DNA from: Planctomycetaceae bacterium
Lineage (GTDB): Bacteria > Planctomycetota > Planctomycetia > Planctomycetales > Planctomycetaceae
Reading direction: 5' to 3'
DNA length: 56,163 nt
Assembly: GCA_016779365.1 (NCBI GenBank)
Contig: JADHNX010000001.1
Location: 1 to 56,163, forward strand
Both the position numbers and the translations under genes were made by a program. Positions 2,833 through 5,595 of the stretch are shown one piece after another (position 1 is the stretch's first letter; each line of letters begins with the position of its first letter). Below the pieces are notes generated by a model that saw only the letters and a program-made list of their open reading frames with translations, made no database searches and was not told where the DNA came from.

Positions 2833-5595
2833 ATGATGAGAGCGATAGTTCACAACCCGTTACGTTATTTCCTGTCCACGATTGCATATACCGTCCTCGT
2901 TGTTGCGGCAGCCAGTGCGGATACCGGGCGGACGTTTGAAGCGGACGTGCGACTGATCCTCAAAGCCCATTGCTTTCACTGCCACGGGGAAGAGGGAAAG
3001 TCCGAAGGGAATCTCGACGTCCGACTCGTTCGGTTGCTCGTGAGGGGAGGCGATTCGGGACCGGCTGTGGTGGCGGGGAAAGCCGGGCAGAGCTATCTGA
3101 TCGAACGCCTCGAAAGCGGTGAGATGCCGCCGGGTGAAACGAAAGTTTCGGCGAGAGAACTGCGCGTGATCCGTGAGTGGATTGATCAGGGGGCTCGCAC
3201 GGCGCGTCCTGAGCCGGCCAATGCAGATCAACTGGCCTTCACCGAGGAAGAGCGGGCGTTCTGGTCATTCCAACCGGTTCTCGCCCCGCCGGTTCCCAGT
3301 GTCAAAGCGGCGGATCGAGTGCGCACACCGGTCGATGCGTTTGTGCTGGCGCGGCTTGATCAGGTCGCGGCCGAGACATCGTCTTCGCTCAGCTTATCAC
3401 CGGACGCCGATAAGGTGACTCTGATTCGGCGGGCTTACTTCGATCTGCTCGGGCAGCCGCCGTCTCCGGAGGAGGTCGATGCATTTCTGGCGGATGATGA
3501 TCCGCAGGCGTGGTCACGGCTGCTCGACCGGCTGCTTGATTCGGAACACTACGGCGAACGTTGGGCTCGGCACTGGCTGGACGTGGCCGGGTACGCCGAC
3601 AGCGATGGCTACAGCGAGCAGGACCGCGTCCGCGAATCGGCGTGGAAGTACCGCGACTACGTCATCCGTTCGCTGAATGCGGATAAGCCGTTCGATCAGT
3701 TTCTCGTCGAACAACTGGCCGGGGACGAACTGGTCGCGGGTGGGCTGGAGTCGTTTAACGGCAAGCCGAAGGCGGCTGCGTCCGGATCGTCGAAACGAAA
3801 CACCAACGCCTCCGTCTCGCCGTTGAACGAACGATTCCGCAATCTTTCGGAAGCCGACAAGGACCGGCTGATTGCGACCGGTTTTCTCCGTAACGCGCCG
3901 GACGGGACGGCCGATCGCGCCGTCGATCAGAACGTTGCCCGTAACGAAGTTTTGGCCGACACGATCAACATTGTTTCGACGTCGCTGCTGGGGCTGTCGG
4001 TTGGCTGTGCCCGATGCCACAGCCACCGGTTCGACCCGATCAGCCACGAAGACTATCACCGGATCCGGGCGATCTTCGAGCCGGCGTATGACTGGAAGAA
4101 CTGGCTTTTGCCGGAAGCCCGCCGACTCTCGTTGTGGAGTGATGCGGAACGTCAACTGGCCGAGGAAGTTGACGCCGAACTGGCGCAAGCGGCGGACGAA
4201 CGCAAGGAGCAGTTGAAGCAGCATCGATCCGATGTGCTGGGCATGGAGCTGGCCAAACTGCCGGCCGATGTCCAGACGCAGGCGGAACTCATTCGTGACG
4301 CCGTGCTGAACCGGTCAAGCAGAGACCGCACGCCGGAACAGGCTTCGATCCTGACGAAGTATCCGAAGCTGGACGTCGGCATCGGCACGCTCGCTCAGGC
4401 TCATAAGGAGCGTTACCAGACGGAACTCAAGGAATACAACGAACGCGTCGCGGAAATCACCGCACGACGGCCTAAGGACAATTTCGTCCGGGCGCTGTTC
4501 GAGCCCCCTGGCAACGTGCCCGTCACGCATCTCTTCCGTCGAGGCAGCCACACGCAGCCGGGCGAGGAAGTTCTGCCGGGTGAGTTGTCGGTGCTGACAC
4601 GCGGCGACGAGTCGGTTGTGCCGGCTAATGATCCGGGTCTGGAAACGACCGGCCGACGGCTCGCGTATGCCCGACATCTCACCGATGGAAAACATCCACT
4701 GACGGCGCGTGTGCTGGTCAACCGCATCTGGATGCATCACTTCGGACGCGGCATTGTGGGAACACCGAGCGACTTCGGTTCGCAGGGCGAGCGGCCGACG
4801 CATCCGGAACTGCTCGACTGGCTGGCCGATCATTTCGTCAAAAGCGGCTGGCGACTGAAAGAGCTGCACAAGCTGCTCATGATGTCGACCGTTTATCGGC
4901 AGTCCTCCAAACGGACCGAGATGCTCGACGCCGTCGATCCCGACAATCGGCTGCTCGGCCGGATGAATCTGCGGCGACTTGATGCCGAGACGATTCGTGA
5001 TACGGTGCTTGCCGTTTCGGGAAATCTCAACCGGGAGCTGTACGGTCCGCCGCTGCCGGTGACGGCCGATGGGGTCGGGCAAGTGGTCATCGGAACGCCG
5101 AAGAACGACCGCGAAGGGCGAGTCATTGCGTTGAAGGGAGACGCCGCCTTCCGCCGCAGCATCTACGTGCAGGCTCGACGAACGCTCAAGCTGGGTATGC
5201 TCGATGCGTTCGACGCTCCAACGATGACGCCCAACTGCGGGCAGCGGACATCGTCGACGGTCGCCAGCCAGTCGTTGCTGTTCATGAACAATGCGGAGTT
5301 GTTGAAGCAGGCAGAGATCTTCGCCGAGCGAGTCGTGAAGGACGCCGGCAGCGACGCCTCGGCGCAGATTCGACGAGCGTGGCGATTGGCGTTGTCGAGC
5401 GAACCAACCGCGGACCAGACGGAGCGCAGCGTCGCGTTTCTCGCGGCACAAACAGACTTCGCCGCGCAGCGAATCCGCGAACTGACGCCCGAGGAAACAA
5501 AGCAAGTCCGGTACGCCGAACAACCCGAGAAACAGGCGCTGGCGACATACTGCCAGTTCCTGCTGAGCAACAACGCGTTCTTATATGTGGACTGA
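2833..5595 (+). CDS. Planctomycete cytochrome-c (PSCyt) / DUF1549 / DUF1553 protein
   Basis: Signal-like N-terminus. CFHCHG heme-c motif (nt 2971-2985). DUF1549-type LIRRAYFDLLGQPPSPEEVDAF. CARCHSHRFDP. DUF1553-type RVLVNRIWMHHFGRGIVGTPSDFG. Followed by its usual DUF1501 partner. Confidence 0.85.
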   Translation: MMRAIVHNPLRYFLSTIAYTVLVVAAASADTGRTFEADVRLILKAHCFHCHGEEGKSEGNLDVRLVRLLVRGGDSGPAVVAGKAGQSYLIERLESGEMPPGETKVSARELRVIREWIDQGARTARPEPANADQLAFTEEERAFWSFQPVLAPPVPSVKAADRVRTPVDAFVLARLDQVAAETSSSLSLSPDADKVTLIRRAYFDLLGQPPSPEEVDAFLADDDPQAWSRLLDRLLDSEHYGERWARHWLDVAGYADSDGYSEQDRVRESAWKYRDYVIRSLNADKPFDQFLVEQLAGDELVAGGLESFNGKPKAAASGSSKRNTNASVSPLNERFRNLSEADKDRLIATGFLRNAPDGTADRAVDQNVARNEVLADTINIVSTSLLGLSVGCARCHSHRFDPISHEDYHRIRAIFEPAYDWKNWLLPEARRLSLWSDAERQLAEEVDAELAQAADERKEQLKQHRSDVLGMELAKLPADVQTQAELIRDAVLNRSSRDRTPEQASILTKYPKLDVGIGTLAQAHKERYQTELKEYNERVAEITARRPKDNFVRALFEPPGNVPVTHLFRRGSHTQPGEEVLPGELSVLTRGDESVVPANDPGLETTGRRLAYARHLTDGKHPLTARVLVNRIWMHHFGRGIVGTPSDFGSQGERPTHPELLDWLADHFVKSGWRLKELHKLLMMSTVYRQSSKRTEMLDAVDPDNRLLGRMNLRRLDAETIRDTVLAVSGNLNRELYGPPLPVTADGVGQVVIGTPKNDREGRVIALKGDAAFRRSIYVQARRTLKLGMLDAFDAPTMTPNCGQRTSSTVASQSLLFMNNAELLKQAEIFAERVVKDAGSDASAQIRRAWRLALSSEPTADQTERSVAFLAAQTDFAAQRIRELTPEETKQVRYAEQPEKQALATYCQFLLSNNAFLYVD
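3752..3829. repeat. Degenerate in-frame copy (78 nt, 26 codons) of the cgtttaacggcaagccg... palindromic element inside the DUF1549/DUF1553 ORF
   Basis: The left end cgtttaacggcaagccgaaggcgg and right end ccgtctcgccgttgaacg resemble the intergenic copies at 5599 and 7174. The peptide SFNGKPKAA... matches the SFNGKPQAT read-through of those copies. The paralogue at 44868-47924 lacks about 30 aa at exactly this position. Confidence 0.7.

Follow-up and report, generated by a model that had tools for sequence, protein, structure and literature searches.

Why does a planctomycete gene of the DUF1549/DUF1553 type carry some thirty codons that most of its relatives do without, and where do these codons come from? 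The question is raised by the gene at positions 2833-5595 (forward strand) of a 56,163-nt stretch of Planctomycetaceae bacterium DNA (assembly GCA_016779365.1, contig JADHNX010000001.1). This whole stretch is called the window below, and coordinates are window positions unless another contig is named. According to the list of open reading frames (ORFs) and to Pfam matches, the gene encodes a 920-aa protein with PSCyt1 (aa 47-101), PSCyt2/DUF1549 (aa 166-417) and PSD1/DUF1553 (aa 608-869) domains, for which a protein search returned more than 7,900 homologues. Inside it lies an 80-nt palindromic element at 3751-3830 (forward strand), with its left arm at 3751-3780 and its right arm at 3803-3830, that is translated as aa 307-333 (S307-E333). 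We consider it very likely that this in-frame element is a partly decayed copy of a hairpin-forming doublet of repetitive extragenic palindromic sequences (REP; the doublet, REPIN) that landed in frame and was kept as a passenger loop.

The original prediction placed an in-frame copy of an intergenic palindromic repeat, family A, at 3752-3829 (78 nt) and described its arms as degenerate. The nature of the element was confirmed, but its bounds had to be moved to 3751-3830. The element begins with TCGTTTAACGGCAAGCCGAAGG and ends with GCCGTTGAACGA / CCTCCGTCTCGCCGTTGAACGA, and its start coincides with a codon boundary of the ORF, giving the translation SFNGKPKAAASGSSKRNTNASVSPLNE. With up to 3 mismatches allowed, a 21-nt arm pattern matches the window five times, whereas 100 shuffles gave an expectation of 0.00; these matches are the intragenic segment and both arms of two intergenic palindromes. 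Full copies number 3 in the 56 kb. The first intergenic copy, at 5598-5673 (76 nt, no strand assigned), begins 2 nt past the stop codon of the host gene. The second, at 7173-7252 (80 nt, no strand assigned), is a near-perfect hairpin situated 12 nt past the stop codon of a DUF1501 partner gene (5697-7160, forward strand; ORF list and Pfam), which lies between the two copies. This second copy is the closest relative of the intragenic one: the intragenic segment is 79% complementary to 7172-7255 over 84 nt, and both are 80 nt long. With a profile built from 150 arms of other genomes, the left intragenic arm reaches 35.4 bits (E 5e-10), a score equal to those of the intergenic arms, whereas that of its right counterpart is no more than 12.7 bits (E 0.008); degeneracy thus concerns the right arm, and the left one is intact. 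The predicted hairpin energies follow the order intragenic copy (-34.8 kcal/mol, z -3.2), 5598-5673 (-49.1, z -8.6) and 7173-7252 (-61.6, z -11.1). An Rfam search of window positions 3000-8000 gave only sub-threshold, meaningless matches of the hairpins to miRNA models and no credible family. The identical insert is found in a 920/919-aa protein on independent JGI, ENA and NCBI contigs and in all 7 members of the 90% cluster, so that an assembly artefact can be discounted.

Of 37 close orthologues (59-88% identity, aligned with the query), 35 do not have the segment and read GDELV(A)|RPYRNLS at this place; it is thus generally missing and not ancestral. The paralogue at 44868-47924 also lacks it, as was correctly quoted in the original prediction. 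At the codon level, the empty site of an orthologous contig, L002, reads GTC ACT|CGC CCC TAC CGC AAT, and the filled site of the window reads GTC GCG GGT GGG CTG GAG, then the 80-nt element, then A CGA TTC CGC AAT. Two other contigs have the same junctions as the window, around a 119-nt version of the element in L001 (protein P0002) and around only the 11-nt TCGTTTAACGA in L003 (protein P0004). The L003 footprint is what remains of the element once the part between the AACG microhomologies of both arms is removed. Counted by lineage, two sister lineages show an 11-nt TCGTTTAACGA-type footprint and another carries the 119-nt version together with two further in-frame palindrome insertions. The codon-level comparison with L002 shows that the inserted block contains, outside the canonical element, an extra 12 nt at 3739-3750 (forward strand, GGTGGGCTGGAG, encoding G-G-L-E) that occurs in insert-bearing orthologues only. 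The right junction (3831-3837, forward strand) is altered as well: A CGA TTC is read as (E)RF where the empty orthologues read RPY. Because these derived junctions are common to the window, L001 and L003, they argue for a single ancestral event at this main site. The claim that about 30 extra residues coincide with the element is right as a net count, since the window has gained 90 nt, or 30 codons, but the 90-nt block exceeds the element, which makes up 80 nt of it. The frame in which it is read, TCG TTT AAC GGC (SFNG...PLNE), is the only one that is free of TAA in both arms, for an 80-nt or a 68-nt copy, and the surviving forms of the insert all differ in length by multiples of three.

The host gene is intact and under purifying selection. 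Comparison of insert-bearing genes gives a ratio of non-synonymous to synonymous substitution rates (dN/dS) of 0.12 for the parts upstream and downstream of the insert alike, and the same value is obtained for insert-free pairs. An AlphaFold model from 104 homologues reached a mean predicted local distance difference test (pLDDT) score of 88.5 and a predicted template modelling (pTM) score of 0.88; a prior model from 38 sequences was unusable (pLDDT 57). In this model aa 301-330 form the main internal low-confidence stretch, mostly coil, with block means of 57, 48 and 54, the insert columns of the alignment being covered by the query alone. Confident helices surround it, H287-300 (pLDDT 96-98) on one side and H330-334/H340-353 (88-95) on the other. 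Mapped on the predicted structure, the insert is therefore placed in coil between H287-300 and H330-334, a position that looks like that of a tolerated loop insertion between helices. Foldseek found no relative of the modelled host protein in the PDB at E <= 0.001, and its fold is therefore one without a solved relative.

The repeat family to which the element belongs was then delimited in a scan of one genome per species, in which arm counts are lower bounds. This genome-scale search revealed a very large repeat family, almost always outside genes: the arm occurs in at least 120 loci of about 49 planctomycete assemblies, with up to 11 loci per assembly. These loci comprise 85 full palindromes, with a modal length of 68 nt, versus 47 single arms, so that inverted doublets (REPINs) are the main form of the family. 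In each element a variable loop is enclosed by two arms in inverted orientation, each about 24-30 nt long (TCGTTTAACGGC[A/G]AGCCGNAGGCG..), and a long hairpin can form in single-stranded DNA or RNA. In an alignment of 252 arms, 22 arm positions are 95-100% conserved and the loops are variable; no conserved sequence was found in their flanks outside TCG...CGA. The arm consensus, TCGTTTAACGGCAAGCCGNAGGCG, has no GTAG tag, and CGTC is found only in the semi-conserved inner stem, where T has a frequency of 42%. No target-site duplication was detected among 95 full copies, identical 3-6-nt flanks being no commoner than in shuffled pairings, as expected for Y1 enzymes. The genomes concerned, metagenome-assembled genomes (MAGs) as well as isolates, are labelled Pirellulaceae, Planctomycetaceae, Kuenenia, Fuerstiella, Mariniblastus, Neorhodopirellula and Laterigemmans. 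Judged from these sequences, the conservation of the arm and of the transposase described below appears unusually deep for a REP/REPIN family. In the window itself, a solo arm remnant of the REPIN-type family may also be present at 25164-25199 (GCCGTTAAACGAATC, no strand assigned; repeat family D11), with a weak nhmmer match at 25185-25196 (E 0.085).

Copies within protein-coding genes are exceptional in this family. Among the at least 120 sampled loci, no full copy and at most 1 of 132 copies overall lies in a Pfam-supported ORF. The one case, which is doubtful, is found in L093, where a TolC-like ORF has a single arm in its C-terminal tail, a region of low complexity. Six other candidates for intragenic copies were rejected: the ORFs of L053, L077, L079, L125 and L128 look spurious (those of L053, L125 and L128 have no Pfam domain), and the copy in L118 lies upstream of the real start. 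A search with a profile of the element-encoded peptide gave 258 matches, the best 120 of which are all ORFs of 26-70 aa over intergenic copies, with no Pfam domain; degenerate copies in long proteins may be missed among the remaining ones. In the sampled loci, in-frame decoration by the REPIN-type family is thus restricted to the host orthologue group, where it concerns two sites, and to the doubtful L093 arm. The coding position is very unusual for the REPIN-type family, but the host lineage has several palindrome families in frame, as described further below.

A putative enzyme for the family is encoded directly downstream of the orthologous gene in a sister lineage. In L002, a 208-aa ORF occupies the spacer between the orthologue of the host gene and its DUF1501 partner, flanked on the left by a full copy and on the right by a single arm and a full copy. 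This REPIN - transposase - REP - REPIN block (L002:12655-13544) takes the same place as the solo copy 5598-5673 of the window. The latter has a loop similar to that of the left L002 copy and a right flank that agrees with the one beside the right L002 copy, which suggests that recombination between flanking copies removed (or brought in) the transposase gene. The 208-aa protein matches Pfam Y1_Tnp with 26.1 bits (threshold 23); among NCBIfam models it best matches REP_Tyr_transpos, that of the REP-associated tyrosine transposases (RAYT), with 44.2 bits versus a cut-off of 80. H105, H107 and Y175 are invariant in 27 homologues, within the motifs EHTHLV and YVE.NP, and comparison with the PDB gave only a weak match, to ISDra2 TnpA at the HUH region. 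The protein has more than 3,400 homologues; the best 120 listed are 64-84% identical, nearly all of 208 aa, and many are named RayT by JGI. In all five genomes examined (L002, Mariniblastus fucicola, Novipirellula aureliae, one JGI contig and one Planctomycetaceae MAG), copies or arm arrays are present within about 170 nt on both sides of the transposase gene, and only one further copy was found elsewhere in these 10.6-kb loci. In Novipirellula aureliae every flanking copy has the variant arm TCGTTTAACGCCAAGCCGATAGG. Copies around a conserved Y1/HUH gene are the layout of a RAYT/REPtron system. Tandem arrays of single arms were also observed beside the transposase gene, at L131:5683-6236 (15 units of 38 nt) and at L130:4718-4899 and 5683-5866.

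These data can be read as follows. The family is normally extragenic and would be the cognate repeat of the 208-aa Y1/HUH (RAYT-like) transposase whose gene its copies flank, the enzyme being the probable agent of its mobilisation. In the ancestor of a small marine planctomycete group, one copy may have entered the codons of the inter-helix loop of PSCyt2. The gene would have stayed open because the only TAA-free frame was used and because the net gain of 90 nt equals 30 codons, and the element would since have been translated as a passenger loop with no required function. In the window lineage, point changes would then have weakened the hairpin. In that of L001, the copy would have been replaced or expanded to 119 nt, and in that of L003 it would have collapsed to the 11-nt footprint between the AACG microhomologies.

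Several observations weigh against so simple a history. The inserted block measures 90 nt and the element 80 nt; the upstream 12 nt and the downstream change from RPY to ERF are not accounted for by insertion of the canonical element. The transposase scores below the NCBIfam RAYT cut-off (44 versus 80 bits), and no such transposase gene is encoded in the 56-kb window. The original prediction regarded the insertion as old and tolerated. Tolerance agrees with the dN/dS of 0.12 and with the coil between helices, but age is harder to reconcile with the arms. With a dS of 0.49-0.54 between the window gene and that of L001, about 10 mismatches would be expected over 46 arm positions, and 3 are seen for both copies (P about 0.003-0.008). 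Both arms are thus nearer the consensus than neutral decay predicts, and a purely neutral passenger of that age therefore fits imperfectly. The window copy (80 nt) and the L001 copy (119 nt) occupy the same site but have unrelated loops, which implies that one of the two, if not both, was replaced. Arm conservation and loop swap could reflect conversion from other copies, re-insertion or constraint at the peptide level. Finally, the whole-gene tree places P0003 and P0006, which are insert-free, in nested positions among orthologues that bear the insert. Trees of separate segments support incompatible groupings, with bootstrap values of 97% for P0001+P0002 (aa 8-420), 98% for P0002+P0007 (aa 421-680) and 100% for P0004+P0006 (aa 681-920). 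Because these segment trees conflict strongly, the host orthologue group is a recombination mosaic; for this reason we rejected a history of the insert drawn on a single gene tree. Such a mosaic could account for the patchy distribution of the insert without precise excision.

The same observations lend some weight to another origin, in which a nearby copy, for instance that past the host-gene stop codon, was the donor in an ectopic recombination or a gene conversion, and the insert was later overwritten, repeatedly, by conversion from other genomic copies. Conversion would leave arms near the consensus while loops differ between lineages; the two intragenic copies of L001 share an identical 119-nt interior, the host gene is itself a mosaic, and the inserted block includes 12 nt of non-element sequence. 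However, the empty site has no homology able to prime such an event. A likeness of the 12-nt left flank to the 3' end of the host gene was considered and rejected, as it extends to only 7/12 positions and is not significant. The lack of family-wide conserved flanks and the existence of a cognate Y1 transposase also favour mobility at the level of the element. We therefore regard arrival by conversion as improbable.

More improbable still is that the insert was co-opted, the SFNGKP...PLNE loop or the mRNA/DNA hairpin serving a function (a translational pause, mRNA stability or an interaction surface) and being kept by selection. The residues encoded by the arms are conserved between the window and L001 at the level of typical purifying selection, the insert is fixed in the population, and the hairpins of the intragenic L001 copies have stayed very stable (-74 and -92 kcal/mol, z -11). 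In contrast, the element has collapsed to 11 nt at the same site in L003, the insert-free orthologues are equally constrained (dN/dS 0.12), and the hairpin of the window copy is much destabilised. Neither the sequence nor the length of the loop is conserved, and the modelled region is low-confidence coil. As for an ancestral segment lost in most orthologues, a chance resemblance or an assembly chimera, to which only the patchy distribution on the whole-gene tree lends support, these are effectively refuted by the 0 arm matches expected by chance, the missing segment in 35/37 orthologues down to 59% identity and in the paralogue, the extragenic arm in about 49 other assemblies (at least 120 loci) and the identical protein on independent contigs.

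A copy that landed in frame and stayed as a passenger loop thus remains the reading that we prefer, and the main site is not the only place where palindromes entered this gene. A second, older in-frame site is probable, of which the window may keep a remnant at 3364-3387 (forward strand), six extra codons (VAAETS..S) at about aa 177-184. This assignment is weak because the remnant is no longer recognisable as an arm. At the corresponding place, a 146-nt full copy with a duplicated left arm is present in L001, and the same duplicated left arm, in decayed form, in L134; L003 has a left arm of 18 nt, and the footprint seen in L135, TCATCAAACGA, is diverged. The orthologous gene of L001 (P0002/P0367) contains a third in-frame insertion at L001:2910-2996, 78 nt encoding 26 aa (GVDDESVAELVRVQSATLNSHESSYNM). 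This insertion, a palindrome (-40 kcal/mol), bears a GTAG tag and has relatives in L111, L094, L013 and L026; its position corresponds to about aa 670 of the window protein, between two helices. The two intragenic family-A copies of L001 present a further peculiarity: the loop of each contains a nested palindrome of GTAG type (GTAGCTCGACTCTCCGAGTCG...), at L001:1322-1379 and 1809-1864. One palindrome sits here inside another that itself lies in a gene; the two interiors of 119 nt are identical or nearly so.

Two further genes of the window contain at least three in-frame palindromes of other families. In the DUF7133/DUF6807 gene 40933-44871 (1312 aa), the palindrome 42763-42823 has perfect 24-bp arms and a GTAG tag (CGTAGCGGTGGCTTCCAGCCGCCG..., -53.9 kcal/mol) and encodes RSGGFQPPNSRAPAAGSHRYA. 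It adds 18 aa that are missing from the 88%-identical orthologue in L003, and the same family is intergenic at L002:14-72. In the PSD3/PSD5/PSD4/PSCyt3/PSD2 gene 37953-40748, palindromes of two further families lie in inter-domain linkers at 39565-39631 (+17 aa) and 40028-40112 (+28 aa). Both are missing from the paralogue 30295-32937, and the first has an arm that is also found in Laterigemmans baculatus and in further genomes. The palindrome 39314-39372, the third in this gene, is associated with no length difference from that paralogue. The paralogous gene 30295-32937 has an uncertain 5' end; at that end, or just upstream of it, three 21-nt arms (AGCCGCGAAGCGGCGACAGCA and its complement) at 30389-30509 form alternative hairpins. 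Strong palindromes were also seen inside called genes at L003:15746-15816 (a 721-aa gene with a weak AXE1 match) and at L134:6441-6529 (a 602-aa gene with a weak GHL10 match).

A broader proposal, possible but rather doubtful in our opinion, is that translated REPINs still belong, as live members, to the genomic REPIN population. Conversion or re-insertion, for which the Y1 enzyme or recombination would be responsible, would hold them near the consensus, with loops swapped, palindromes nested and hairpin-mediated collapse, all in multiples of three. Steady in-frame length variation would then be generated in loops and linkers of PSCyt/PSD proteins of the Fuerstiella-like lineage, and the host gene would have been hit repeatedly because the REPtron adjoins it.

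Several consequences follow from the present case. Planctomycetota join the short list of lineages in which palindromic repeats are translated as parts of proteins. The evolutionary series is unusually complete, with empty, full and expanded sites, the last with a nested palindrome, an 11-nt footprint, and a probable transposase gene adjacent in a sister lineage. For annotation, differences in length between DUF1549/DUF1553 and related PSD proteins can stem from repeat insertions and not from domain changes. The phylum-wide pair of REPIN and Y1 transposase is also well suited to testing whether RAYT-type enzymes move their repeats.

It remains to compare this system with those already known. 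The REPtron layout of REP/REPIN sequences and RAYT was reportedly described by Nunvar in 2010, by Bertels and Rainey in 2011 and by Ton-Hoang in 2012. The family reported here resembles it in having a short palindromic repeat with many, mostly extragenic copies, inverted doublets that form a long hairpin, copies on both sides of a Y1/HUH gene, no target-site duplication and a frequent location just past stop codons. It differs in that the arm ends have no GTAG tetranucleotide and in that the transposase is below the NCBIfam RAYT cut-off and has a long conserved N-terminal extension. The 24-nt arm is moreover nearly invariant over several planctomycete families, whereas classical REP sequences tend toward species or genus specificity. 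The Rickettsia palindromic elements (RPE-1 and others) are said to have been found by Ogata and colleagues in 2000, in frame in protein genes, translated and usually on surface loops. Both systems include palindromic repeats in frame in protein-coding genes, a relation of analogy only; host phylum and consensus are unrelated. To our knowledge, no transposase has been linked to the original RPE-1 family. The Rickettsia elements also decorate many genes per genome, whereas the REPIN-type family here is almost always extragenic.

The MITEs (miniature inverted-repeat transposable elements) of bacteria, such as Correia, Nezha and ERIC, some of which are inserted in frame, have been reviewed by Delihas in 2011 (PMC3184786). 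They are likewise small, non-autonomous inverted-repeat elements able to add peptides. However, they are DDE-derived and have target-site duplications; none was seen here, and the enzyme is of the Y1/HUH type. Quentin et al. 2018 described class 3 TnpA-Y1 proteins, most of them from Planctomycetes, in which conservation extends further at the N terminus and whose genes have REPtron-like flanks of high-copy atypical secondary structures (PMC6006769). The shared features are a planctomycete Y1/HUH protein, an N-terminal extension and a REPtron-like arrangement. The published class 3 motifs are Y----Q (YV[VI][AENY]EQ) and the HuH motif NHVH (Table 1, PMC6006769), and the published hairpin foot is CnGA. 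Our protein has YVE.NP and EHTH, a CnGA foot was not recognised, and these motifs set it apart.

In-frame palindromic repeats as such are already known, from the Rickettsia elements and from intragenic REPs. The former were named as precedent in the original prediction, and the analogy stands, but the latter are nearer (PMC3733652). Di Nocera et al. 2013 described intragenic GTAG/CGTC REPs in several phyla, including Opitutus terrae, of the Planctomycetes-Verrucomicrobia-Chlamydiae (PVC) superphylum, and Rickettsia conorii RPE-4/RPE-6, and they equate RPE-4 and RPE-6 with REPs (PMC3733652). Such REPs are present as singlets or dimers in annotated ORFs, add 20-30 residues, sometimes twice per gene, and were read as tolerated insertions (PMC3733652). 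Three planctomycete genomes are among the REP-bearing species of that study; its supplementary files contain no planctomycete names beyond the species list and no trace of our arm sequence (PMC3733652). The arm strings likewise had no match in searchable papers and are absent from the supplements of the two relevant ones (PMC3733652, PMC6006769). The element studied here is similar to these intragenic REPs in the 20-30 residues gained and in the presence, in some cases, of two copies per gene. It differs in that the empty, full, expanded and footprint states can be followed side by side in orthologous genes, with a transposase gene adjacent in a sister lineage.

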